This document shows, piece by piece, positions 11,201-50,702 of a DNA stretch of 64,000 nucleotides. Location of the stretch: NCBI GenBank assembly GCA_963578805.1, contig CAUZDY010000015.1, forward strand, positions 542 through 64,541. Reading direction: 5' to 3'. The translations under genes were made by a program, and so were the position numbers. This stretch comes from Vicinamibacteria bacterium. Its GTDB lineage: Bacteria > Acidobacteriota > Vicinamibacteria > Vicinamibacterales > UBA8438. The number at the start of each line of letters is the position of its first letter. The stretch's first letter is position 1. The notes under the pieces were generated by a model. That model was not told the origin of the DNA. It saw nothing but the letters and a program-made list of their open reading frames with translations, and made no database searches.

Positions 11201-12871
11201 ATGATTCAATTCCTCAGCATTCAAAACCTAGCGGTGGTGGATGAGTTGGAGTTAGATCTTCATCCTGGCCTGACGGTTCTGACTGGTGAGACCGGGGCGG
11301 GAAAATCAATTATCCTTGGCGCGCTAGGGCTCCTTGTCGGCGGTCGCGCCACGAGCGACCTCGTTCGAACGGGTCAGGTTCGTGCGCGAGTTCAAGCAAC
11401 GATCGAGGACGACAAGGGACAGGAAATAATCCTCAGGCGAGAAGTGACGGCTCAAGGTCGGAGTCGTGGGTTCATCGGCGACACTCTGGCGACGGCAAGC
11501 GCGCTTAAGGAACTGGGCCGCCGGCTTGTTGACCTTCACGGCCAGCATGACCATCAGGCGCTGCTTGACCCGGCGAACCATTTAGCGCTGCTGGACGCCT
11601 ATGCTGGCCTGGATAAGGAGACTTCTGTTGTGGGCGAAGCGTATCGCATGTGGCGCGCGGTTCGGGGGCGACTCGAGCAGCTACAGCGCAACGACCAGGA
11701 CAGAACTGACCGAGTCGCACTTTTAGCATTTCAGTACCAGGAGATCAAAAGCATCGCTCCAACGGTGGGGGAGGACACGACACTGCACGACACTCGCCAG
11801 AAACTTGTGAACTCCGATCGACTGGCCTCGTTATGCGCCGAGGCCTATACCGCTTTGTATGAACGAGACGACTCCATCCTTTCTAATCTCGGTCAAATGT
11901 GGCGACAAATCGATGAACTGGTCGAGCTGGACCAACAGTTTTCCGTTCACGCGGACGGTCGAACGGCCGTGGAGTCGCAGCTTGAAGATTTAGCTTTTTT
12001 CCTTAGGTCGTACGCCGCGAAGATCGAGACCTCTCCTGAGAAACTGGCGGCGGTCGAGGGGCGATTGGCTGAGCTGGAGGATCTCAAGCGGAAATATGGG
12101 CCGAGTCTTGAAAAGGTGGCGGAGCACAGGAAACAGGTCGAGGATGAACTCGCGGAGCTGACAACGGGGAACCAGAAACTAGAAATACTGCTGCGGGAGG
12201 AGGAGGAACGACGGGCCACCTTTGAACGTGTAGCGGAGAGGCTATCCAGCAGTCGACAGGCCGCGGCTCCAAGACTAATAGAGGGGCTGCAACGAACGCT
12301 CGCAGACCTGGCTGTCCCTGATGCTCAACTAGAAGCGCGATTCTACCGAGGTCCGGTGGCCGACCGTCAGTGGACCGAACGTGGTGTCGACACGGTGGAA
12401 TTCTTCTTTTCTGCCAATCCAGGCGAGCAGGTTCGGCCGCTTGCCAAGGTGGCGTCTGGTGGTGAACTTTCGCGGGTGATGCTTTCGCTTAAGAGTCTAG
12501 CCACCACCGACAGGCTGGGTAAAACGCTGGTGTTCGACGAGATCGATGCGGGAATCGGAGGTGCTGTTGCAGATCGCGTAGGCGCGATGTTGAAACGGCT
12601 TAGCGAAGAATATCAGGTTATCTGTGTGACCCATCTGCCGCAGATCGCGGCCTACGCAACATCTCACCACCACGTATCAAAAGTCGTCCGGAAGGGCAGG
12701 ACGGTTACACGGATCGAGGAGCTGGCCGAAGAGGCTCGAGTGACAGAGCTAGCGCGGCTGATGACTGGTGCAGATTCGATTGGGGCCCGCGCAGGTGCGA
12801 GAGAAATGCTAAGAGGCAAAGAAAAGACGAAAGGCGAAAGCGAAAGGCGAAAGGCGAAGGTTGGTGGCTAG
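11201..12871 (+). CDS. recN: DNA repair protein RecN
   Basis: Walker A GETGAGKS, long coiled coil, SMC signature SGGELSRVMLSLK, Walker B LVFDEIDAGIGG. Confidence 0.95.
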   Translation: MIQFLSIQNLAVVDELELDLHPGLTVLTGETGAGKSIILGALGLLVGGRATSDLVRTGQVRARVQATIEDDKGQEIILRREVTAQGRSRGFIGDTLATASALKELGRRLVDLHGQHDHQALLDPANHLALLDAYAGLDKETSVVGEAYRMWRAVRGRLEQLQRNDQDRTDRVALLAFQYQEIKSIAPTVGEDTTLHDTRQKLVNSDRLASLCAEAYTALYERDDSILSNLGQMWRQIDELVELDQQFSVHADGRTAVESQLEDLAFFLRSYAAKIETSPEKLAAVEGRLAELEDLKRKYGPSLEKVAEHRKQVEDELAELTTGNQKLEILLREEEERRATFERVAERLSSSRQAAAPRLIEGLQRTLADLAVPDAQLEARFYRGPVADRQWTERGVDTVEFFFSANPGEQVRPLAKVASGGELSRVMLSLKSLATTDRLGKTLVFDEIDAGIGGAVADRVGAMLKRLSEEYQVICVTHLPQIAAYATSHHHVSKVVRKGRTVTRIEELAEEARVTELARLMTGADSIGARAGAREMLRGKEKTKGESERRKAKVGG

Positions 12872-14270
12872 AAAAGTATGCATTGAAACGTTCGGGTGCC
12901 AGATGAACGTTCACGATTCAGAGCGTGTCGGAGGACTCCTGGAACAAGCTGGATACGAACTCACGAATGACGTCGAAGAGGCGGACCTCGTAGTTGTCAA
13001 TACTTGCAGTGTCAGAGAGCGCGCCGAAGACAAGCTCTTTAATCGAATAGCCGTACTTAGCGCCAAGCGATCACCAGGCACTAAACCGATGGTCGCCGTT
13101 ATCGGTTGCGTCGCCCAGCAAGAGGGTAAAAACATCTTTGCTCGCGCCCCTGGGGTCGACGTGGTTGTCGGCACCCAAGCACTCGAGAGACTGCCGGTAC
13201 TTATCGCGGAGGCCGAGCTCTCAAAAACTCATCGGTTGGACATCAACCCCTACGACAATGTGTCTTTCCCTCTCGGTGTCGCTGTCAGACACGATCCAGT
13301 ACGGGCCTTCATTACGATCATTGAGGGCTGCAATGATTTCTGCTCATTCTGTGTCGTACCGTACACTAGGGGCCATGAACGAATGCGACCCGCAAAAGAG
13401 ATCGTCGAAGAGGTCCGTCAGGCAGCAGACCGTGGCCATGTCGAAATCCACCTACTGGGGCAAATCGTCAACCACTACCAGGCACCCGATCTTGGAGATT
13501 GCGACTTCGCCAAGTTACTTGAACTCGTCCACGATGTACCTAATGTGGAGCGCATTCGTTTCGCCAGCCCACATCCACGCCATGTCACCGGGCGGATGCT
13601 GGACGCAATGCGTGACCTGCCAAAAGTCTGCCGACATCTACACCTCCCGGTACAATCTGGATCCACTGAGGTCCTCCGAGCTATGCGCCGGAGGCACAGC
13701 CGAGGGGACTATCTGCGACTCGTAGAAAAAATTCGAAGAGCTATCCCGAATATCGCTCTATCGACCGATATGATCGTTGGGTTCCCAGGTGAGACACAGG
13801 AGCAATTCGAGGAAACTCTCTCGTTGACCGAAACGGTTCGCTATCACAGCATGTTTTCCTTTAAATACTCGGAACGACCTAACACCTTGGCCTCACACCG
13901 CCTTCCAGACAATGTGCCAGAATCTGAGAAGACCGCTCGAATCATGGAACTCCAGGCAATTCAGAAGTCGATCCAGACCTCACTACATAAGCGGAAAGTG
14001 GGTCAGTCGGTGAGAGTTCTGGTCGACTCAAGGAGTCGAAAGAGACATGAGGAGCTTTCTGGACGAACCAGCCAGAATACCGTTGTCAACTTTCCAGGTG
14101 AGGCTGAGTGGATTGGGCATACTGTAGACGTGTCTGTATTCAGAGCGGGTCCAAATAGCCTCTCAGGAAAGGTATTAGCCTTGGATGCTCATCGGTCAAA
14201 GACATCAGAGAACCTGCCTGCTGCGGAAGTAGAACTAAAACCCCATGAGGAAGAAACCAGGCCATGCTAA
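12861..14270 (+). CDS. miaB: tRNA-i6A37 methylthiotransferase MiaB
   Basis: UPF0004 domain (IETFGCQMNVHDSE), radical-SAM cluster CNDFCSFCVVPYTRG, C-terminal TRAM domain. Non-ATG start (TTG 12861 or GTG 12864) overlapping the recN stop. Confidence 0.9.
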   Translation: MVARKVCIETFGCQMNVHDSERVGGLLEQAGYELTNDVEEADLVVVNTCSVRERAEDKLFNRIAVLSAKRSPGTKPMVAVIGCVAQQEGKNIFARAPGVDVVVGTQALERLPVLIAEAELSKTHRLDINPYDNVSFPLGVAVRHDPVRAFITIIEGCNDFCSFCVVPYTRGHERMRPAKEIVEEVRQAADRGHVEIHLLGQIVNHYQAPDLGDCDFAKLLELVHDVPNVERIRFASPHPRHVTGRMLDAMRDLPKVCRHLHLPVQSGSTEVLRAMRRRHSRGDYLRLVEKIRRAIPNIALSTDMIVGFPGETQEQFEETLSLTETVRYHSMFSFKYSERPNTLASHRLPDNVPESEKTARIMELQAIQKSIQTSLHKRKVGQSVRVLVDSRSRKRHEELSGRTSQNTVVNFPGEAEWIGHTVDVSVFRAGPNSLSGKVLALDAHRSKTSENLPAAEVELKPHEEETRPC

Positions 14271-14749
14271 TCGAGATGACAATTAAGGGTCTAATGGTCG
14301 ACCCGATCACAAATATGCCAATCGTTATCCTTCGCGACGAGGATGGGAAACGGGTTTTACCGATCTGGGTCGGGGTCTTCGAAGCGAACGCGATCGCACT
14401 TCAGATCGAGAACATTGAGACCCCACGGCCGATGACCCATGATCTGCTTCGTAATGTCATTACAGACCTCAACGCTGACGTCGACAAGATCACCTTGTGT
14501 GACCTCAAGGAGAACACTTTCTACGCCCTTATCCATCTCCGCCTCGGCGGGGAAGTTGTCGCTATCGACGCACGTCCAAGCGATGCCATCGCGCTCGCGC
14601 TCCGTGTACGCGCGCCAATTCTCGTTGAAGAAACCGTCATTGACGGCGCAAAAACACTTAACTTCTCGCCAGGTAAGGCCGATTCTGAGCAGCTTTCCAA
14701 GTGGCTTGAAGGCCTCGCCCCTGAAGAGTTCGGCAAATATAAGATGTAA
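14264..14749 (+). CDS. bifunctional nuclease family protein (DUF151)
   Basis: Pattern PIVILRDEDGKRVLPIWVGVFEANAIAL..ARPSDAIALALR. Overlaps the miaB stop by 7 nt. Confidence 0.75.
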   Translation: MLIEMTIKGLMVDPITNMPIVILRDEDGKRVLPIWVGVFEANAIALQIENIETPRPMTHDLLRNVITDLNADVDKITLCDLKENTFYALIHLRLGGEVVAIDARPSDAIALALRVRAPILVEETVIDGAKTLNFSPGKADSEQLSKWLEGLAPEEFGKYKM

Positions 14750-19055: not shown

Positions 19056-20768
19056 TCACCAGCTCTCAAGACGGAGCCGCCGGACCGTCACCATCGCCAT
19101 ACTCCCGGGTTGGGCGTTGACGAGTTCAGCTCCTAGCAGCAGCGAATCAGTTGCGGCAAGATCGACCGCTCCGTATCGGTCTGGCTCGACCGATTTGAAC
19201 TCATCAAAAGCGATTCTTACCCGGCGTCGAGTGGTATCGGCGTAAAATGACGACCGCCAGCGCTGCTCCGAGGCTAACGCCCCGGCCCGGAGGTACACAA
19301 AGAGTCGCAGTGGTCGATCGGCGACGACATCAAATGCCACCGCATCGAATGACTCCAGCTCAACACCACGGACCGGTCGCCTCGCCACCGCATATGGACT
19401 GTCCGCCGCCGAGTCGGAGAGCCGATAACGAAACCTCAACTGACGTGACTCGATCATTACCTCCGCGTCGCTGTTTGGATCGTGCTCAACGGACCAAATT
19501 CCACCTCGAGCCCTGGTTCGTCCCATCAGCGACCGCCTCGCGGTTGGTCTACGAGCCGCGACAGAAGGGACAATCGGCGAATTACCCACGGTGATCGGGT
19601 TGCTAACAATCCACGGCACAGGAGACTTCCCTGCCACCCCTCTCACGCGAACCTCCACCCGATAGACCGCCGGTTCTTCTACACGATACCGAAGCTCAGC
19701 ATCGGTAACGGTGTGAACGGTCAAGCCATTGGCCAAGAGCACGATATCGGTGCGCGGTGGTGCCACCGTAGCCGCTCGAAGTTCTACAGCAGTTCCGGTG
19801 GGGACCCTCTCCCCCATCGAATAGTTTTGAGCCGATCCGATCGCCTCAAACTCAAACGCTGCCGGCGAAGCAAGCGCATCGACGACCGTGAACACGCGCC
19901 CGGCACGGATGGCATCCAACAAAAGCTTGGAGTCCTCCTCCGCGTCACCAGTGAACTGACGGCCAACGTCGACACGCAACGAGAAGGTCCGAAGGAGATG
20001 TACGTAATCTGGAAACGTCAATCCAAGTGACACGGGTTGTTTTTCATGGGTTCCGGTCACAACTAGCCCGTGGGCATCGTGGCCCGCCAGTCCGACCGTC
20101 TGACGATCCCAGGATGCTCGATCCCACATAGCCAGAGCATCATCCGGCCGATCTAGCAACGAAGCCAATGTCACAGTGGGTCGGAACGGATATCGCAGAA
20201 CCGTGGTCAATAAATGCACAGTCGATTCGTCCCGCCACTGACTGTCGGCGTTCAGCCATTCGACCGCGTCCACAACCAACTCCGGGTCCCGCCAGTTTAA
20301 ACCGCTCTTCGGTGATGTCGGATGCGCGACCACCCCGAACCCACCCAACCGACGAACGTCCTCGACGACCGTGTCCGGTTCACCGCCTAGCGGATACGGC
20401 GTTTGCGGGAGACCAATGGCGATGTAATGACCACCGGAAGTGCTAATTTCGACACTGTCAAGTGTCAGGACGCCAGACCGATATTGGGGAGGTTCTGGGG
20501 GGCGTGTGCCGTCACCATGATCGGTGACGATCAGGAACTGGAGCCCCGCTTCCCCGGCGGCGCCAGCGACCTCGTCCATCGGTGCTCCGCCATCGGACCG
20601 TGTCGTGTGGACGTGAAAGGCTCCAGCCACCGTTGACTTCGACCCGATCGACGAGTCAGACCGGTCGACCACCCGGGGGTTAGCCGGAAGCGTCAACAGT
20701 ATCCAGGCAATCGCGGCAACGAGCCCACAGACGACCGCCGTCAGGACCGACTTGCCCTGGGTGTCCAT
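19056..20768 (-). CDS. membrane-anchored PHP-domain metal-dependent phosphoesterase (CehA/McbA-like)
   Basis: N-terminal TM segment, then PHP motifs FHVHTTRSDG, LIVTDHGDG, VVAHP. The C-terminal ~350 aa have no motifs I recognise. Confidence 0.6.
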   Translation of the reverse strand: MDTQGKSVLTAVVCGLVAAIAWILLTLPANPRVVDRSDSSIGSKSTVAGAFHVHTTRSDGGAPMDEVAGAAGEAGLQFLIVTDHGDGTRPPEPPQYRSGVLTLDSVEISTSGGHYIAIGLPQTPYPLGGEPDTVVEDVRRLGGFGVVAHPTSPKSGLNWRDPELVVDAVEWLNADSQWRDESTVHLLTTVLRYPFRPTVTLASLLDRPDDALAMWDRASWDRQTVGLAGHDAHGLVVTGTHEKQPVSLGLTFPDYVHLLRTFSLRVDVGRQFTGDAEEDSKLLLDAIRAGRVFTVVDALASPAAFEFEAIGSAQNYSMGERVPTGTAVELRAATVAPPRTDIVLLANGLTVHTVTDAELRYRVEEPAVYRVEVRVRGVAGKSPVPWIVSNPITVGNSPIVPSVAARRPTARRSLMGRTRARGGIWSVEHDPNSDAEVMIESRQLRFRYRLSDSAADSPYAVARRPVRGVELESFDAVAFDVVADRPLRLFVYLRAGALASEQRWRSSFYADTTRRRVRIAFDEFKSVEPDRYGAVDLAATDSLLLGAELVNAQPGSMAMVTVRRLRLESW

Positions 20769-23189: not shown

Positions 23190-24443
23190 ATGGTTCGACC
23201 GAGACCTCTCAGTGCAGTTTTTGGCTGGCTTTGCCTCTTCCTGTCGCCTGCCTGCGTGAGCCACCAGACCCCCGAGACTGTTCCTGCTCTACCCTCAATA
23301 ACTCCAGGGGATTTGGACACTCAAATCGCGCAATACGTTGGCGTCCAGACGGCATTGGCAGCCGATGACTTTGACGACGCGAAAAGCGCATTTCAACAGC
23401 TGCTACCGATTGCAGACGCCAGGACATCACCATTGATTCGGGCCGCGGCCAGTGCCGGGGACATCGCCACGATGCGCGCTCGCTTCAAACCGCTCTCAGA
23501 GTACCTGGCTGCCCAGGACCTCCCATCGGGCTACGCCCGTGCATATTGTCCGATGTATGACGGTGGCTCGACCTGGGTTCAAACTGATGGTCCGGTCCGT
23601 AATCCGTACTACGGCTCGGTGATGCTCACTTGTGGTGTTGTCGATGCTGCGCCCGGGGCGCACATGGACCACTCACCACGACATGGGGGAACCGTCTTCA
23701 TGGCACCAGACAGTTTCCACCATGTTGAAGGTACGTATCCAGAGGCGGGAATCTTCCGGCTCTACGCCACCGACAACTACCGCAACCCGGTCACGTTGAG
23801 CGAGTGGGGGGGGCGGTTGGTTCTAGAAGAGGAGTACAACGCCGACACCGACGAGTTCACAGAACTTACGGCTTTTAACCTTATTCCTAGCGTGGCAGGA
23901 GAGTATCTTGAGGCGGTGGTGGGAGACCTGGCACCGCCGGCGGAGTTTATTGCCAAAGTAATTTTTGGCGTCGATGGCGAGCAATTTCCGGAAGAGCGCT
24001 TCGACTTTATCTTTTCGGATTACTCCAGCAATACAGCGCCGCCGGCGCTGAGCCTGACAGCTGAAATAACCGAGGCGGCGGTCCCGCTCGCCACCCGTAT
24101 TCAGCCGGAGATTCCAGAGCTTACTATCGAGCTGGTATCTGAGATCGGCGTCCGCGCTCAGCAGCTACAGGAGCTCGTCACCGCCGGACGTTTTACCGAG
24201 ATCTTCGTTCCGGCCCTTCAGGGGAAAGCCCTGGCGCTAGAACTGGACAGACGGTCAGATCTCGAAAACCTGCCAGCGAGACGACAAAACGAATTACGGA
24301 TAGCCGTCCGTCATCTTGTCCGCGCGGCATACCTCCTAGACTGGTATGGCGACCTTGGCAACAAGCAACAGGTCGGTGGTGCCTACGATATTTTTTTTGC
24401 TTCGGTCAACGAGATCGTTCGAGCGTATGAGGGTGCGCCCTGA
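23190..24443 (+). CDS. lipoprotein with N-terminal DUF3347-like domain and an uncharacterised His-rich C-terminal region
   Basis: Lipobox LSPAC. DUF3347-like pattern (QYVGVQTALAADDFDDAKSAF .. RARFKPLSEYL .. AYCPMYDGGSTWVQ..VRNPYYGSVMLTCG). Then HMDHSPRHGG and FHHVEG. GGAGGAG Shine-Dalgarno. Confidence 0.5.
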   Translation: MVRPRPLSAVFGWLCLFLSPACVSHQTPETVPALPSITPGDLDTQIAQYVGVQTALAADDFDDAKSAFQQLLPIADARTSPLIRAAASAGDIATMRARFKPLSEYLAAQDLPSGYARAYCPMYDGGSTWVQTDGPVRNPYYGSVMLTCGVVDAAPGAHMDHSPRHGGTVFMAPDSFHHVEGTYPEAGIFRLYATDNYRNPVTLSEWGGRLVLEEEYNADTDEFTELTAFNLIPSVAGEYLEAVVGDLAPPAEFIAKVIFGVDGEQFPEERFDFIFSDYSSNTAPPALSLTAEITEAAVPLATRIQPEIPELTIELVSEIGVRAQQLQELVTAGRFTEIFVPALQGKALALELDRRSDLENLPARRQNELRIAVRHLVRAAYLLDWYGDLGNKQQVGGAYDIFFASVNEIVRAYEGAP

Positions 24444-24482: not shown

Positions 24483-25715
24483 ATGCAACGGAGATGGTGG
24501 GTGGGCGTTCTAGTTGTGGGTGTTCTCGGCGTGATGGAGTCAAGCCCTCACGGTCACACACCAATCGCATCACGATGGAATTTTAACGAGCACCTCTACC
24601 CGGTGTTCAGAGACCGATGTAGTAGTTGTCACGTAGAGGGTGGCATTGCGCCGATGTCACTGCTTGATTACCGATCGGCATTTCCATGGGCACAATCGAT
24701 CCGAGAAGAAGTTTTGGGTCTGCGCATGCCGCCATGGCAGGCCGAGGATGGATTCGGCGACTTTCAAAACGGTCACGCTCTGACGGCAACCGAGATAGAT
24801 ATGATTCTCGAATGGTCAGCTGGTGGGTACCCGCAAGGTCCTCTGGCCAAGACCCCGATCTCAGTCACCTCGGTCGAGGATTGGACTCTTGGAGAACCCG
24901 ATCTAGTAATTGAGGTTCCGGAGGCCTTTCTGCTCGATGCGGATACGAGTGAGACAGTCCACTATTTCGTAATGCCGTTTGGTCTCAGCGAGGAACGCGT
25001 GCTCATTGGCGCGGAGTTCAAGCCGGATGCACGTGCCGTCGTGCGCGGTGCCGCTATTTTTATCGACTCAACCGGCACGGCCCGCGCCCTCGACAACGCG
25101 GACACTGGCGTAGGCTTTAGCCAGACCGATGAGCACAGATTTCCCGCTGTCCCACCAGTGGCGATCTGGACACCTGGACAGTCGTCGATCCTGAACGAGG
25201 TTGGTGGATATCTCGTGCCGACTGAAGCCGATATTGTGGTGCGGATACACTACAAAAAGACGTGGATCACGGAAGGGGCTGACTTCTCCGATCAGAGTCA
25301 AGTTGGTCTGCATTTCGCTGACGGCGACGCGGCGACCATCGAGTCGATACTCGTGTCATCACCGGGCGTGAACACCGGAGACCCCGTCATGTTCAGTCAC
25401 AATTTCGACACCGATATGACGGTTTTGGCTCTGTTCCCAGAAGTCGACATCGAGTCCTCACAGCTCCAGGTTGAAGGAGTGACACCCGGTGGCGACCGGA
25501 TACCTATGCTCTGGCTGCGCGAGCCGGACGCGGGATGGCCGACCCGCTACTGGTTCAACACGCCCATTGCGTTGCCTGCGGGAAGTCAGATCGAAGTGAG
25601 AGCTGTGCTCGACCCAGCCGCGCAGCGTCTGGAAAAGTCCACATTACTCGGTGATGACACCGCGCCGATCCGTGTCTCCGTTGAGTACGTTAGAGGGCTG
25701 CTGACGGCCGATTGA
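24483..25715 (+). CDS. periplasmic/membrane-anchored protein with one CxxCH heme-c motif (planctomycete-type cytochrome c-like N-domain) and a beta-rich C-terminal domain
   Basis: N-terminal hydrophobic segment. FRDRCSSCHVEGGIAPMSLLDY..RMPPW resembles the PSCyt1-type module often fused to copper monooxygenase-like domains. Confidence 0.5.
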   Translation: MQRRWWVGVLVVGVLGVMESSPHGHTPIASRWNFNEHLYPVFRDRCSSCHVEGGIAPMSLLDYRSAFPWAQSIREEVLGLRMPPWQAEDGFGDFQNGHALTATEIDMILEWSAGGYPQGPLAKTPISVTSVEDWTLGEPDLVIEVPEAFLLDADTSETVHYFVMPFGLSEERVLIGAEFKPDARAVVRGAAIFIDSTGTARALDNADTGVGFSQTDEHRFPAVPPVAIWTPGQSSILNEVGGYLVPTEADIVVRIHYKKTWITEGADFSDQSQVGLHFADGDAATIESILVSSPGVNTGDPVMFSHNFDTDMTVLALFPEVDIESSQLQVEGVTPGGDRIPMLWLREPDAGWPTRYWFNTPIALPAGSQIEVRAVLDPAAQRLEKSTLLGDDTAPIRVSVEYVRGLLTAD

Positions 25716-36728: not shown

Positions 36729-37451
36729 TTACCTATCGATCAATCCCGACGTCCCGACGTCTCTCGACCCTCTAGCTCGATCGGCTTCTCTGATTCCATC
36801 AACGCCTCGACCCGGACGAAATAGTGAGGCTTCTGCCTCCGATCCGGTTCTACCCGATCCGCGCCGAGATGGTTGAATTCCGGTGTCCAAGACACCGGTG
36901 TCAGGTTCAGTCGCACTCGGTGCGTAGACAAAGAACCACTCGTCGTATTGCTCTTGATTGTTATAGCTCCGCAAAGATGCCTCCTCGCTCAGACTGACCA
37001 CTCCGACCACGCCACCTGAGCGGTCCTCTCCGAATTGGCTCCGTTCGGTGCTTTGCGCTCCGCCACCGGTATCGCCTAGTGACTCACCGGGCCGGTCGCC
37101 CGTTGCCGGCACATTTCGTATGTCTGCTATTTGAGAGAAATAAACGACGCGAAAGTCTCCGCCATCGGTCATCGGATCGGCATAGAGCTTTCGAAGGAAT
37201 CTTCGCTCGACGAGGGTCTCAAAATCTGACGGATTGGCTCCGACGTAGCGCCGCTGGTATAGCTCTACCGCTCGTGCGTACTGCTCGCCTCGAAAGATTA
37301 ACTCAGCTTCACGTTCACGTTTCACTGTTTGATTCCACACCGGTAGGAGGATTGACGACAGGACTCCCATCATTCCAAGCAGAACAAGAAGTCCTGCCAT
37401 GGCGTACCCTCTCGCGTCACGCAATCGTCCCCGTACCAAAAGTCGACACAT
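36729..37451 (-). CDS. atypical GspG-like pseudopilin lacking Glu+5, with a low-complexity C-terminal tail
   Basis: Start chosen at ATG 37451 (leader MCRLLVRGRLRDARG, then YAMAGLLVLLGMM). EAELIFRGEQYARAVELYQRRY..LYADPMT resembles the two upstream GspG-like genes. Alternative starts at 37529 and 37403. Confidence 0.5.
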   Translation of the reverse strand: MCRLLVRGRLRDARGYAMAGLLVLLGMMGVLSSILLPVWNQTVKREREAELIFRGEQYARAVELYQRRYVGANPSDFETLVERRFLRKLYADPMTDGGDFRVVYFSQIADIRNVPATGDRPGESLGDTGGGAQSTERSQFGEDRSGGVVGVVSLSEEASLRSYNNQEQYDEWFFVYAPSATEPDTGVLDTGIQPSRRGSGRTGSEAEASLFRPGRGVDGIREADRARGSRDVGTSGLIDR

Positions 37452-37510
37452 GTCTATAGAATGAATCTCAATCTTCCGAATGTCGGGAGCGCTGGCCGTG
37501 TTCGCCGCAT

Positions 37511-37906
37511 ATGCGATTTTCTTTTTCATGGTCCGCTCTTGCGCTCATTCTGGCCTACCTGTTCGGTGTGCAGGGCTGCGAGAACCTCCCACTCTTGGCG
37601 CCGACTGAATCGACGATCATTGTCGTGGTCAGCGATCCCGTGATCCCTGTCGATGGAGAAGCGGTCATCACGGCGGTAGTGACGGAATCGGTCGGTACGC
37701 CGGTACAAAATGACACCCTAGTGACCTTCTCGACCACGCTCGGAACCGTGAATCCGCAGGAGAGCCAAACCCAGGACGGTCGGGCCACGACCCGACTATT
37801 GGATGGGAAGACGGTCGGCACCGCTACGGTTACCGCGTTCTCCGGTCAATCGATATCCAGAGCTGTATCGGTCCGAATCGGACCGATACCCCCTCCCTCG
37901 CCGTAG
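37511..37906 (+). CDS. small lipoprotein with a bacterial Ig-like (Big_1, invasin/intimin-type) domain
   Basis: Signal peptide with lipobox FGVQGC. EAVITAVVTESVGTPVQNDTLVTFSTTLGTV..DGRATTRLLDGKTVGTATVTAFSG. Confidence 0.6.
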   Translation: MRFSFSWSALALILAYLFGVQGCENLPLLAPTESTIIVVVSDPVIPVDGEAVITAVVTESVGTPVQNDTLVTFSTTLGTVNPQESQTQDGRATTRLLDGKTVGTATVTAFSGQSISRAVSVRIGPIPPPSP

Positions 37907-47645: not shown

Positions 47646-48539
47646 CTAGGGTGACAGGGGTTCCAGAAACGCGTAAAAGACTCGTGCGCCAAGACTTCTC
47701 AGATCTGCACTCAAACCGCCTGAAACCGATTCCGGCACAAATGTCTGATCGACATACAGATCGATTGTGACAGAATCGGCGTCGCCTAACTGCGCGACAC
47801 CTAGCGGAATCTCGTGGAATTGATTCTCCAGACTGTCGAGCCTAATCTCATAAATCACTTGCTCACCGATCCGAATCTCGACTTCCTGGGGGGTCTCAAA
47901 ATAATCGAAACGGCCAGAGAGCTCAAGATAAAACACGGCGTCTGACCTAGGGTTTCGAAATGAGAAACTAGCCTTCTCGGTTGTCCAACGCCACATCACC
48001 TTGGTCTCTGGGTCGGTCTCGTTGCCGTGCCAGCCATCCTGATAGTAGACAAAACTACTCTCCGCTTGGGGTGCGATAGCGACCGACGTGGCTCGATAGG
48101 CTTTCTCGCCGATCGAATCACCTGTCAACGCCCACCGCTCTCCCGTGGCCGGCGAGTACAACCCGACCGTCACTATCGAGTCACCAACATAGGGATACAT
48201 CGGGATCCGTTCCCGTCGTGTGTACGAGATTGTCTGGCCAGGCTGCCACTGACTGGTCGGCACGGACGGCTCATGGTCGGCAGCCCACATCATGTCTCCG
48301 TTCACATCAAGAAAGTGCACCATCACCCACAGGTCTTCCTCAAGCGGTTTCAGATCCGGTGACACGACGAACTGAATTGCCATCTTGACCGGTCCACCGA
48401 GCGGTACGACTTTCCGGTCCAGCTGAAGGGTCACAACGGCCACGGGATCGTCGGACAACCCCGAACTACAGGCTATCATCGCGATACCGACGGCAGCCGG
48501 CGCGAGCCGGGACAGCCAGCGGCGCGGTAAACAGGCCAA
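47646..48539 (-). CDS. uncharacterised lipoprotein
   Basis: TTG at 48539 preceded by GAAGGAGGA at optimal spacing. Signal peptide with lipobox AMIAC. Beta-rich mature part without motifs I recognise. The upstream 216 codons of the tracked 513-aa ORF are discarded. Confidence 0.55.
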   Translation of the reverse strand: MACLPRRWLSRLAPAAVGIAMIACSSGLSDDPVAVVTLQLDRKVVPLGGPVKMAIQFVVSPDLKPLEEDLWVMVHFLDVNGDMMWAADHEPSVPTSQWQPGQTISYTRRERIPMYPYVGDSIVTVGLYSPATGERWALTGDSIGEKAYRATSVAIAPQAESSFVYYQDGWHGNETDPETKVMWRWTTEKASFSFRNPRSDAVFYLELSGRFDYFETPQEVEIRIGEQVIYEIRLDSLENQFHEIPLGVAQLGDADSVTIDLYVDQTFVPESVSGGLSADLRSLGARVFYAFLEPLSP

Positions 48540-48683
48540 TGTGTAGAATCCTCCTTCGCTCGGAACTACGTTGGGATAAGTGTCGCCATGGTAACGTGTT
48601 GTCGCACTTACGGCAATATGGTACGCTTCCGGCGCATTTGACTGCAGACGCGGTTGCGCCCTTCCGCCGCGGAGGACCATCGA

Positions 48684-48974
48684 ATGACGCTTGAAGCACT
48701 TGGTATGGTAGAGACGAAAGGCTTGGTCGGTTCGATTGAAGCGGCCGACGCGATGGTGAAGGCCGCCAATGTCGTCCTCGTTGGCAAGGAGTACATCGGT
48801 GCGGGTTACGTCACGGTTATGGTGCGCGGAGATGTGGGTGCGGTCAAAGCCTCGACCGACGCCGGTGCCGCAGCGGCCAGGCGTGTCGGCGAACTCGTCT
48901 CCGTCCACGTTATTCCGAGACCTCATAGTGAGGTCGAAAAAATTCTCCCGAAGGCTAAAGACGCGTCGAAGTAG
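48684..48974 (+). CDS. bacterial microcompartment shell protein, BMC-H (PduA/EutM type)
   Basis: [75 protein letters not shown] is collinear with canonical hexamer proteins. GGAGGA lies 7 nt before the ATG. Confidence 0.93.
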
Positions 48975-48986
48975 CACCGAGAGGGC

Positions 48987-50702
48987 ATGAGCCAACCCTC
49001 CTCTCTCTCCTCTTCGCTGGATCGCGATCTCATCTCGATCAGTGAGGCTCGTGCGCAGGCGCGCCGGGCGAAGGCGGTCCAGCCTCAGCTCGAACAACTT
49101 ACACAGAAGCAGATCGATACGATCGTTGACGCGATGGCCACTGCCGTCACGGGCGAAGCTGAGTCGCTCGCGGCGCTCGCCGTTCACGAGACCGGATTCG
49201 GTGTGGTTGCCGACAAGGTCCAGAAGAACCTATTTTCGGCCCGAACCGTGCACGAGTTTATCCGTCCGATGAAGACGGTTGGAGTTATTCGCTCCCTCAG
49301 TGACCGACGAGTACTGGAAATTGCTCAACCGTTTGGTGTCGTTGCGGCCGTCGTCCCGTCCACTAATCCAACGTCGACAACGATCTACAAAATTTTAATC
49401 GCGATCAAGGCGCGGTGTGCTTTGGTGATCAGCCCACACCCTGCCGCCGTCAGGTGTATCACGCAAACCGCTGAGTTGATGAATCGCGCGGGTCTCGGTG
49501 CCGGGCTCCCTGATGGTGCAATCAGCTGGATGCAGACCGTGACCCTCGAAGGCACCCAAGAGCTGATGCGGCATCGCGACGTCGCGGTGATTCTGGCCAC
49601 TGGTGGCATGGGTTTAGTGCGGGCCGCCTACTCTGCCGGGAAACCAGCTTACGGCGTCGGTCCGGGAAACGCACCGGCCTACATCGAACGTTCCGCCGAC
49701 TTACCCAAGGCGGTGCAGGATATCGTAGCCGGTAAGACATTCGACAACGGGTTGCTCTGCTCTTCGGAGAACTCGGTGGTGGTAGACCGTGTGGTCGCCG
49801 ACGATGCAAAACGTGAGTTCAAAAACAACGGAAGCTCTTTTCTCTCTGCCGCCGAATGTGAGGCTTTGGCTAAGGTCCTCGTTACATCGGAACGGCTACC
49901 CAACCCGACCCTGGTCGGGAGGCCCGCCACGGAGATAGCGGCTGCGGCAGGAATTACGGTGCCGACCGACACTCGTGTGTTAATCGCTCCACTCGACGGG
50001 GTTGGTCGTGATTACCCGCTATCGATCGAGAAACTGTGCCCCGTCCTCTCGTTTTATGTCGTCGACGACTGGAACGAGGGGTGCGAACGATGTATAGAAA
50101 TTCTCCGGCATGGCGGCATGGGACATACCATGTCAATTCACTCCCGTGACGAAGGAATCATCTTAGAGTTTGGCCTTAGGAAGCCGGCGTCTCGAATTGT
50201 CGTCAACACCCCAACGACTTTGGGGTCAATTGGAATGACCACCGGTCTCGACCCATCCATGACGCTTGGCTGTGGAGGCTACGGTGGAAATATTACGTCG
50301 GACAATATCTCGCCGATGCATTTACTCAACATAAAACGTCTTGCTTACGAAACCCGCTCCGTAGCCGACCTTCGAACCTCGACAATGACACCAGCGGAGA
50401 CACCCCGGGCCGAGAAGCCTGCCATTGACCCAGTGACGCTGGCGCAGCGAATCGATCTTTTCTTATCGACGAGAGGTGTGACCAAGACACAGGAAGCCGC
50501 CCCTCCACCAATCTCCCAGGCGAAACCATCAGAGCCGCAGGCGACACCGGTTGAATTTGTGTGTGAGGACGATGTACGCGAGGCGATCGAAGGCGCTCAG
50601 TCGATCGTCATCAACGATAAGACGATCGTTACACCGTCCGCACGCGACCTTGCTGAGCTCCATCACGTGTTCACCTACACTGGTCTCTCCACGAGGCACT
50701 GA
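48987..50702 (+). CDS. CoA-acylating aldehyde dehydrogenase (EutE/PduP family) with ~115-aa C-terminal extension
   Basis: VVPSTNPTST, GGMGLVRAAYSAGKPAYGVGPGN, catalytic FDNGLLCSSENS, GGMGHT. Tail after about aa 455. Confidence 0.88.
   Translation: MSQPSSLSSSLDRDLISISEARAQARRAKAVQPQLEQLTQKQIDTIVDAMATAVTGEAESLAALAVHETGFGVVADKVQKNLFSARTVHEFIRPMKTVGVIRSLSDRRVLEIAQPFGVVAAVVPSTNPTSTTIYKILIAIKARCALVISPHPAAVRCITQTAELMNRAGLGAGLPDGAISWMQTVTLEGTQELMRHRDVAVILATGGMGLVRAAYSAGKPAYGVGPGNAPAYIERSADLPKAVQDIVAGKTFDNGLLCSSENSVVVDRVVADDAKREFKNNGSSFLSAAECEALAKVLVTSERLPNPTLVGRPATEIAAAAGITVPTDTRVLIAPLDGVGRDYPLSIEKLCPVLSFYVVDDWNEGCERCIEILRHGGMGHTMSIHSRDEGIILEFGLRKPASRIVVNTPTTLGSIGMTTGLDPSMTLGCGGYGGNITSDNISPMHLLNIKRLAYETRSVADLRTSTMTPAETPRAEKPAIDPVTLAQRIDLFLSTRGVTKTQEAAPPPISQAKPSEPQATPVEFVCEDDVREAIEGAQSIVINDKTIVTPSARDLAELHHVFTYTGLSTRH

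Follow-up and report, generated by a model that had tools for sequence, protein, structure and literature searches.

The pair of genes described here, a BMC-H shell protein followed directly by a CoA-acylating aldehyde dehydrogenase (AldDH), is most probably a satellite locus of an ACI-type microcompartment (BMC) in a marine member of the Vicinamibacterales (Acidobacteria subdivision 6). The stretch of DNA analysed, which we call the window, is 64,000 nucleotides long, and the pair within it is of a kind already known: it matches the ACI satellite in the catalogue of Sutter, Melnicki, Schulz, Woyke & Kerfeld (2021, Nat Commun 12:3809; main text and Supplementary Data 2), and most likely represents a normal outlying portion of a larger organelle. 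On the authority of that catalogue, a main ACI locus would be expected elsewhere in the same genome (PMC8217296). The ACI type comprises 125 loci, exclusively from Acidobacteria and mainly from subdivisions 4 and 6; its AldDH is always on a satellite locus, with a BMC-H "occasionally found... with an AldDh", and carries close to its C-terminus an encapsulation peptide (EP), behind which lies a ~50-aa domain with no assigned function (PMC8217296). A first-pass annotation of the window had titled the pair an orphan and had offered two readings of it, a satellite or a scaffold built by the shell protein without pentamers. The satellite reading agrees with the published ACI description in taxon, in pairing and in the tail of the AldDH, with the main locus supplied by the literature, while neither the word orphan nor the pentamer-less scaffold has gained any positive support.

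The gene pair and its shell protein

The BMC-H gene (48684..48974, plus strand) encodes 96 aa with a single PF00936 domain (E=3.6e-28, residues 5-80 covered), which bears out the shell-protein identity first proposed for it. Its top NCBIfam model is EutM (130.9 bits) and its nearest solved structure is PduA (7mmx, 147 bits), to which roughly three-quarters of its residues are identical in an alignment judged by eye. Collinear over its entire length with the basal hexamers of the PduA/EutM kind, the protein has their single ~90-aa BMC domain and their KAAN and (P/A)RPH inter-hexamer motifs, here KAANV and IPRPH; these interface motifs and the pore loop, GKEYIGAG, are conserved among orthologues. 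The IGAG of the pore, remarked upon in the first-pass annotation, stands where E. coli EutM has IGGG and S. enterica PduA has IGSG, and most orthologues keep its alanine (62 of 77 have GKEYIGAG).

Between the stop of this gene and the start of the AldDH gene (571 aa; 48987..50702, plus strand) lie 12 nt (48975..48986, plus strand; CACCGAGAGGGC) with a Shine-Dalgarno-like GAGAGGG, a GAGG-like ribosome-binding site, just as had been read there before, and by this layout the two genes are one operon. Its presumed promoter and 5' leader occupy the intergenic region at 48540..48683, on the other side of which a divergent ORF of 344 aa begins on the minus strand. Pfam has no match to that ORF, whose N-terminus resembles a lipobox (AAVGIAMIAC); we considered it as a part of the module and rejected it as a lipoprotein-like envelope protein without a BMC link. 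A promoter scan marked a single weak sigma-70-like site at 48452-48479, just upstream of 48540, which is at chance level, and the promoter and terminator scans as a whole were set aside as uninformative because their counts equal the chance expectation.

The two proteins differ markedly in constraint. Mean identity of the BMC-H to 75 species orthologues is 90.2%, against 65.7% for the AldDH across those species, and such a stronger constraint on the shell protein would be expected of a tile that fits a multi-protein lattice.

The aldehyde dehydrogenase and its C-terminal extension

The AldDH matches Pfam Aldedh (E=4.7e-28), and its catalytic motif, FDNGLLCSSENS, already recognised in the first pass, contains a cysteine, Cys258, that is invariant across 54 aligned family members. 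Matches to Pfam, TIGR02518 and PDB entries place the catalytic core at residues 1-455 (48987..50351, plus strand), and its family membership indicates that the enzyme would be a CoA-acylating aldehyde dehydrogenase. The original label, "EutE/PduP-type", is right as to this chemistry and wrong as to clade. With 605.3 bits the enzyme falls just under the equivalog cut-off of TIGR02518 (620.1 bits), followed by 520 bits for the AdhE N-terminal half, whereas for PRK15398, the EutE/PduP family, it has 237.1 bits where the subfamily cut-off is 403. Among solved structures, the Listeria ALDH 3k9d (492 bits) and 5j78 (474 bits) come out far above those of PduP (139-144 bits; 5jfl 144). The catalogue places the ACI AldDH phylogenetically close only to that of MIC3 of Planctomycetes (PMC8217296), and the window AldDH, at 31-38% identity to its counterparts in HO/SPU-like BMC loci, appears to belong to a clade of its own, consistent with that statement.

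The most informative part of the enzyme is a C-terminal extension of ~115 aa that the first-pass annotation had passed over. PDB 3k9d (464 residues) aligns to residues 11-463 only, so that the nearest structure leaves this extension uncovered; its anatomy is drawn here from column conservation among 121 family members and from AF2 models. An Ala/Pro-rich linker of low conservation and pLDDT <50 (residues 456-478; 50352..50420, plus strand) and a second, Pro-rich linker that is likewise variable and disordered in the model (residues 498-520; 50478..50546, plus strand) enclose a conserved island, residues 479-497 (50421..50477, plus strand; AIDPVTLAQRIDLFLSTRG), with the family consensus GIDxxTLAxRIDxFLxxRG. 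AF2 predicts a helix at 482-495 with disorder on both sides, and we regard the island as an encapsulation-peptide-like helix, which would match the "EP close to the C-terminus" of the ACI AldDh.

Behind the second linker follows a small conserved domain of 46 aa (residues 521-566; 50547..50684, plus strand; PVEFVCEDDVREAIEGAQSIVINDKTIVTPSARDLAELHHVFTYTG), in which F524, C526, E527, D529, V530, A533, I547, T549, P550 and A552 are invariant among 54 members. Modelled alone with AF2 (pLDDT 88), it is predicted to be a small alpha/beta fold in the order strand-helix-strand-strand-helix-strand, to which Foldseek found no fold match in the PDB at E <0.2. Pfam gave no match to a 53-aa query of the domain and one weak, sub-threshold match to the 100-aa tail (PF24470, E=0.017). 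The NCBIfam matches are to BMC proteins without exception (TIGR02536, 9e-4; EutQ, 0.022; PduM, 0.05 and 0.088), BLASTP aligns the domain with residues 3-40 of E. coli EutQ (E=6e-5), and hhalign returns weak probabilities of 52% for a EutQ/PduM-like motif and 13% against Listeria TIGR02536. When the domain was sought in other architectures, the best 150 matches were AldDH fragments or chimeric assemblies, with no second architecture among them.

What the domain has in common with the N-terminal H1/H2 of EutQ and with the C-termini of PduM and TIGR02536 is a pattern of the form (I/V)-x-(E/A)-x-D-(V/I)-R/E, then a hydrophobic strand, then (I/L)-T-P-x-A-(R/K)-(D/E). In EutQ and PduM the motif is part of a cupin or structural protein, whereas here an enzyme carries it at its C-terminus. 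The H1/H2 of EutQ binds the EutM/EutL shell interface (PMC12487888), and the N-terminus of EutQ is required for pull-down of EutM (PMC4827028). Judged by sequence, the domain at 521-566 weakly resembles this shell-binding N-terminus, and also PduM and TIGR02536, and may itself bind the shell. We tentatively propose, at slightly less than even odds, that the ~50-aa domain which the catalogue leaves without a function in ACI AldDHs is homologous to EutQ H1/H2 and serves to bind the shell. If true, this would account for the joint inheritance of the enzyme with one BMC-H, and a docking module of the EutQ/PduM type at the C-terminus of ACI AldDHs would offer a testable handle on cargo attachment in the as yet uncharacterised ACI organelle of abundant soil and marine Acidobacteria.

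The tail also bears on the suggestion that the AldDH acts in the cytosol as a normal acetaldehyde dehydrogenase, with the BMC-H beside it a functionless leftover. The core of the enzyme is indeed near free-standing acetylating acetaldehyde dehydrogenases and the N-terminal half of AdhE, but the BMC-H is much more constrained than the enzyme (90% versus 66% identity) and keeps all of its interface motifs, conservation of the EP and the C-terminal domain extends over 121 members, and the pair is intact in each of the 76 related species loci with upstream DNA, all of which makes a relic very improbable.

Chromosomal setting and the search for other shell genes

Among GTDB species genomes, 301 relatives of the AldDH were found, of which we compared the best 80. 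Nearly all of these 80 are labelled as Acidobacteriota/Vicinamibacterales MAGs, including one Luteitalea sp.; two are labelled Bifidobacteriaceae. Vicinamibacter and Luteitalea belong to Acidobacteria subdivision 6, and the window organism is accordingly an acidobacterium of one of the two subdivisions in which ACI loci are mainly found. Of the 80 loci examined, 76 extend far enough upstream to be informative; in every one of these a single BMC-H gene immediately precedes that of the AldDH, and within 10 kb to either side of these 76 there is no second BMC domain and no EutN-like gene. The flanking envelope housekeeping genes named in the first-pass annotation, for an SLT transglycosylase, an M23 peptidase and SecA, proved to be what they had been called, and the survey of synteny that it had proposed finds the same neighbourhood around the head-to-tail pair in the relatives. 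For more than 20 kb, the window and its relatives share one gene order (T2SS/T4P genes, SLT, lipoprotein, the pair, M23, SecA, IMPDH, TsaE), a fixed housekeeping position that fits an old, vertically inherited satellite.

The earlier statement that the window holds no other BMC genes stands, and extends to the flanks. With 15 E. coli Eut proteins as phmmer queries (EutN, M, K, L, S, D, G, B, C, Q, P, T, J, A and E), nothing besides the pair was found in the window or among the ORFs of the related loci. The 30 window ORFs of at least 120 aa at 1-38.5 kb have Pfam matches to housekeeping families or none, gene tables for ~38.7-60.4 kb of the window contain housekeeping families only, and matching public contigs that continue ~7.5 kb past its left end and ~9 kb past its right end have no BMC genes. 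The canonical metabolosome set of pentamer, phosphotransacylase, alcohol dehydrogenase and signature enzyme is absent from the window and these flanks, ~82 kb in total.

Searches aimed at a main ACI locus in public sequence led back to satellites or to other organisms. The best 120 matches to the BMC-H protein were all >90% identical, and the four of them that could be mapped are satellite copies; the contexts of two BMC-H sequences at 20 places were satellites in every case. An alignment of BMC-P proteins had no match among viral contigs, and among metagenome contigs it retrieved loci that are HO/SPU-like, with a EutE-type AldDH of their own, or of unknown type, none of them ACI. No Acidobacteria appeared in a tblastn search of plasmids with BMC-P, nor among the best 120 matches to a lineage-neutral "green-clade" BMC-P consensus, where every match that names an organism is from Myxococcota/Deltaproteobacteria.

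Such results could be taken to mean that the pair is autonomous, with neither pentamer nor main locus, the BMC-H forming sheets, tubes or open shells that scaffold the AldDH by way of its C-terminal tail. No BMC-P or other shell gene occurs in ~82 kb around the pair, a main locus was seen nowhere in the DNA examined, the two genes are invariably linked, and the AldDH itself carries two elements that may dock onto the shell. Against this, 82 kb is too small a part of a genome of roughly 5-6 Mb for the absence to carry much weight, and the distal position is as published for ACI: the catalogue has this type of AldDH as a satellite in genomes whose main locus includes a BMC-P triplet (PMC8217296). 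An encapsulation peptide, moreover, implies a lumen as its target. We consider an autonomous minimal module unlikely.

It is also conceivable that the pair is a satellite of a different, non-ACI type of BMC, recruited to another pathway in the marine lineage. The main locus is unseen and its type unverified, the closest relatives of the catalogued AldDH are in MIC3 of Planctomycetes (PMC8217296), and the window lineage is divergent: it is marine and of lower GC (56%), its AldDH is ~63-71% identical over full length to those of the related species genomes compared, most of which are MAGs from soil and groundwater. What genes the lineage has is not to be assumed. Orthology and synteny with the Vicinamibacterales loci are nonetheless unbroken and the architecture of the AldDH tail is that of ACI, so that we see little probability in a recruitment of this kind.

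A proposed role and comparison with known systems

As a satellite of an ACI organelle, the pair would contribute both a shell component and a cargo enzyme. The BMC-H hexamers would tile shell facets together with shell proteins encoded by a main locus in another part of the genome, and the co-transcribed AldDH, a predicted CoA-acylating aldehyde dehydrogenase, would be brought to the shell by its tail, through the amphipathic encapsulation helix at 479-497 and the ~45-aa module at 521-566 that resembles EutQ H1/H2. Inside, an aldehyde released by an aldolase, probably lactaldehyde or another short hydroxy-aldehyde of that kind, would be converted to acyl-CoA with reduction of NAD+. In the published ACI gene set, the main locus encodes a BMC-H, three BMC-P, a class II aldolase with an EP and a 2-hydroxyacid dehydrogenase, together with three unknown proteins; no PTAC is listed for it, and the AldDH is distal (PMC8217296).

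The pair is one more case of a locus type that has been in the catalogue since 2021, which hundreds of public Acidobacterial MAGs possess, and its use is modest: it documents that the BMC-H/AldDH pairing is invariable across a whole order, at a fixed chromosomal position, and that constraint on the BMC-H far exceeds that on the AldDH.

Of the known systems, the ACI satellite locus is the closest. It is found in the same phylum and subdivision, and in both cases the AldDH lies away from any pentamer gene with a BMC-H gene adjoining, ends in an EP followed by a ~50-aa domain (here 479-497 and 521-566), and belongs to a clade apart from other BMC AldDHs; in the catalogue the ACI BMC-H falls in H_fuchsia or H_royalpurple and the AldDh in the ACI/MIC3 clade (PMC8217296). 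The BMC-H partner, on the other hand, is "occasional" in the catalogue and present in 76 of 76 loci of this order, and the lineage may for that reason deviate in some details from the genomes sampled in 2020; in addition, the window comes from a marine organism with 56% GC, and no main locus was seen in the DNA read here. The nearest curated family and nearest structure to the AldDH are those of the Firmicute EUT2 type (TIGR02518; Listeria 3k9d), and in the Listeria eut operon, too, the TIGR02518-type AldDH gene is flanked by BMC-domain genes, but there it sits within a complete eut locus that has a pentamer, a lyase and a phosphotransacetylase. The MIC3 metabolosome of Planctomycetes, which we compared by description only, has by published statement the only AldDH that is phylogenetically close to that of ACI, in another phylum and with another shell inventory.

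The hexamer gene and its dehydrogenase partner

Both genes of the pair lie at exactly the positions reported by the first-pass annotation. The upstream gene (48684-48974, forward strand) encodes a canonical BMC-H protein of 96 aa with a single BMC domain (Pfam PF00936, E=3.6e-28), for which EutM is the top NCBIfam match at 130.9 bits, slightly below the cut-off of 133, and PduA (7mmx, 147 bits) is the nearest solved structure. The co-oriented gene for the aldehyde dehydrogenase, AldDH (48987-50702, forward strand, 571 aa), follows after a 12-nt spacer that contains GAGAGGG, and its product is a predicted CoA-acylating enzyme of the ALDH family (Pfam Aldedh, E=4.7e-28) carrying the FDNGLLCSSENS motif, whose catalytic Cys258 is invariant among 54 aligned relatives. 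The BMC-H pore loop, GKEYIGAG, is retained in most orthologues; PduA of S. enterica has Ser where this loop has Ala. Product names in JGI data are swapped in both directions, with PF00936 hexamers called 'CcmL/EutN' (proteins P0151 and P0168) and PF03319 pentamers called 'CcmK/EutM' (P0408 and many others).

The earlier description of the enzyme as 'EutE/PduP-type' needs correction at the level of family: the EutE/PduP model PRK15398 scores only 237 bits, against 605 bits for the top curated match, TIGR02518 (acetylating acetaldehyde dehydrogenase, cut-off 620), and 520 bits for the N-terminal half of AdhE. Among solved structures, a Listeria ALDH (3k9d) scores 492 bits and PduP (5jfl) 144 bits. 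Identity to the AldDHs of HO/SPU-like loci from metagenomes is 31-38%, a low value that fits a separate clade. The core of the enzyme ends at about residue 455. Within residues 399-479 (window 50181-50423), the last ~55 core residues are highly conserved yet score below 50 in AlphaFold2 confidence; they may form an oligomerisation element, which a model of the monomer alone would be unable to position. Gene calls on one JGI contig (L102, 598-2299) break AldDH into two ORFs of 475 and 105 aa, a frameshift or assembly error that splits the core from the tail.

Co-inheritance and chromosomal setting

Among GTDB species, each represented by one genome, 301 AldDH relatives were recovered; of the best 80, almost all carry an Acidobacteriota or Vicinamibacterales label, among them a Luteitalea sp. 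MAG. Vicinamibacter and Luteitalea represent subdivision 6 of the Acidobacteria in culture. Two of these 80 loci (L083 and L086) come from 'uncultured Bifidobacteriaceae' MAGs that contain this Acidobacterial locus, and their label or binning is almost certainly wrong. Proteins identical to the window pair are present on marine-looking metagenome contigs from ENA, JGI and Logan.

The pair is strictly co-inherited: a single BMC-H gene stands directly upstream of AldDH in all 76 species loci whose sequence extends far enough upstream, and no second BMC domain or EutN-like gene was found within 10 kb of the pair in those loci. Mean identity to the window protein over 75 species loci is 90.2% for BMC-H versus 65.7% for AldDH, and BMC-H keeps its KAAN and PRPH facet-interface motifs across species loci. 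Constraint on the hexamer so far above that on the enzyme is what one expects of a shell tile that must fit a lattice with multiple partners. One MAG (DASUGH01, SMAG_U1400) has a BMC-H/AldDH pair on each of two contigs, which may reflect duplication, strain mixing or bin contamination.

The chromosomal setting is fixed, running from T2SS/T4P genes through an SLT transglycosylase and a lipoprotein to the pair, then M23 peptidase, SecA, IMPDH and TsaE; the SLT, M23 and SecA genes that the first-pass annotation had recognised beside the pair are thereby confirmed. Soil relatives (L088-L097, ~12070-14460) carry a family-2 glycosyltransferase gene on the opposite strand and a Mg-chelatase/ComM-like AAA+ gene between AldDH and M23, an insertion absent from the window lineage. 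Transposase insertions interrupt the otherwise fixed neighbourhood in L089 (7583-8140, DDE_3) and L096 (15586-16014, Y1_Tnp). The lipoprotein-like ORF between SLT and BMC-H (47646-48680, reverse strand) is transcribed divergently; its N-terminus resembles a lipobox, and it belongs to no Pfam family. Relatives have it too, in versions of 226-344 aa, and its called start, only 3 bp from that of BMC-H, is probably over-extended.

No other microcompartment gene occurs in the window, as first proposed, and phmmer, Pfam annotation and gene tables all agree on this. Fifteen authentic Eut proteins of E. coli (from NC_000913), used as phmmer queries, matched only BMC-H and AldDH in the window. Pfam annotation of every ORF of at least 120 aa at 1-38.5 kb (30 ORFs) found housekeeping genes only and no microcompartment family. 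The families comprise Lpt, RpoN, RapZ, SSB, Tol-Pal, RecN, MiaB, ParAB, LptFG, MetK, an integrase/recombinase-family protein, aspartokinase, homoserine dehydrogenase and two SSF symporters. Of the 30, four lack a Pfam match at E<=0.001 (570 aa, 19056-20768, reverse; 417 aa, 23190-24443, forward; 410 aa, 24483-25715, forward; 266 aa, 36729-37529, reverse). The rest of the window holds the T2SS/T4P cluster and the genes around the pair through to TsaE, followed by YjeF, an aminotransferase and glycine cleavage genes. Neither tRNA genes nor Rfam matches occur in the window. Matching public contigs extend the flanks by ~7.5 kb past the left end and ~9 kb past the right, again with no microcompartment gene. 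About 4-6 kb past the right end, one such contig (L188, 4509-6290) carries a lactate permease (PF02652) and a small cupin near the glycine-cleavage genes.

A conserved C-terminal tail

The first-pass annotation was right about the presence of the enzyme and missed its conserved C-terminal tail, the remaining 115 residues, whose architecture is conserved among 121 family members. A variable Ala/Pro linker after the core leads to a conserved segment, GIDxxTLAxRIDxFLxxRG (residues 479-497), and a variable Pro-rich linker (between 497 and 521) leads to a highly conserved terminal domain of 46 aa, PVEFVCEDDVRxAIxxGxxIVIxxxTIVTPAARDLxExHxVF (residues 521-566, window 50547-50684), which has an invariant Cys, C526. 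From the family alignment, AlphaFold2 predicts a lone helix at 482-495 with a disordered linker on either side; for the terminal domain it predicts a small alpha/beta fold (strand-helix-strand-strand-helix-strand; pLDDT 88 when modelled alone).

In a scan of 18,950 NCBIfam models with a permissive cut-off, four models matched the 53-aa domain query, all of them for microcompartment proteins: the ethanolamine-utilisation protein TIGR02536 (E=9e-4, at the model's C-terminus), EutQ (positions 5-41 of the model, E=0.022) and, again at the C-terminus, two PduM models (E=0.05 and 0.09). The 100-aa tail query returned the first three. Weak support comes from BLASTP against E. coli EutQ (residues 3-40, 38% identity, E=6e-5), a stretch reported to be shell-binding, and from hhalign (52% probability), and the Listeria TIGR02536 protein weakly shows the same ITEQDV...TPLAKD pattern. 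At the N-terminus of EutQ, H1/H2 binds the shell at the EutM/EutL interface and H3/H4 binds cargo peptides (PMC12487888), and capture of EutM in pull-downs required this N-terminus (PMC4827028). On this evidence there is close to an even chance, at best, that the 'domain of unknown function' on the AldDH of the Acidobacterial microcompartment type, ACI, is a shell-docking module of the EutQ-like kind; if so, the linkage of the enzyme to a BMC-H of its own would be accounted for. The suggestion is limited because Foldseek found no solved relative of the terminal domain and because, among the best 150 matches of a profile search of 1.84 billion representatives, the domain occurred only on AldDH C-termini or in evident chimeric assemblies. 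Four proteins (P0268, P0286, P0296 and P0357) join the AldDH tail to unrelated N-terminal domains (Macro, N-acetyltransferase, NDK, DUF2229) and look like chimeric metagenome assemblies, not genuine architectures.

A likely main locus and the probable ACI satellite

Searches for an Acidobacterial main locus returned satellites or other lineages. The matches listed for BMC-H were near-identical proteins only, the four that could be mapped onto related loci being satellite copies, and the genomic context of two BMC-H sequences was a satellite in all 20 places. An alignment of BMC-P sequences taken from the PDB had no match in viral contigs and, in metagenomes, matched only HO/SPU-like or unclassified loci; a BMC-P search of plasmids gave no Acidobacterial match. 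Among the best 120 protein matches to a lineage-neutral consensus BMC-P, the named organisms were all Myxococcota or Deltaproteobacteria, with no Acidobacteria. Three high-GC metagenome loci (L131, L160 and L167) encode a protein of 215-227 aa starting ...RTY(I/C)FLD(S/A)LQPQ..., followed by BMC-H and a single BMC-P, with AldDH absent nearby.

Two interpretations had been offered, a satellite of a main locus elsewhere and an orphan scaffold lacking pentamers. The former is upheld by its match to the ACI catalogue and the latter is not; that the marine lineage of the window has a pair entirely without pentamers is highly improbable, and on the strength of the literature this organism very likely has a main locus. 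As part of such a satellite, BMC-H would co-assemble with shell proteins of the main locus and the tail of AldDH would recruit the enzyme, which would take the aldehyde released by an encapsulated class II aldolase and oxidise it to an acyl-CoA. Judging from the PVM and GRM5 aldolases, this aldehyde is probably lactaldehyde or similar, and a 2-hydroxyacid dehydrogenase possibly recycles the cofactor.

The ACI type was defined by Sutter et al. 2021 (PMC8217296) as confined to Acidobacteria, chiefly subdivisions 4 and 6, with AldDH always encoded on a satellite locus and bearing an encapsulation peptide close to its C-terminus and then a domain of ~50 aa. Additional ACI BMC-H proteins occur 'with an AldDh' according to Supplementary Data 2 of that study. 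The window pair and the ACI satellite have in common the taxon, the distal position, the BMC-H partner and an unusual AldDH tail. Because of these shared features, together with an AldDH that fits a separate clade, the pair is very probably the ACI satellite locus, already catalogued.
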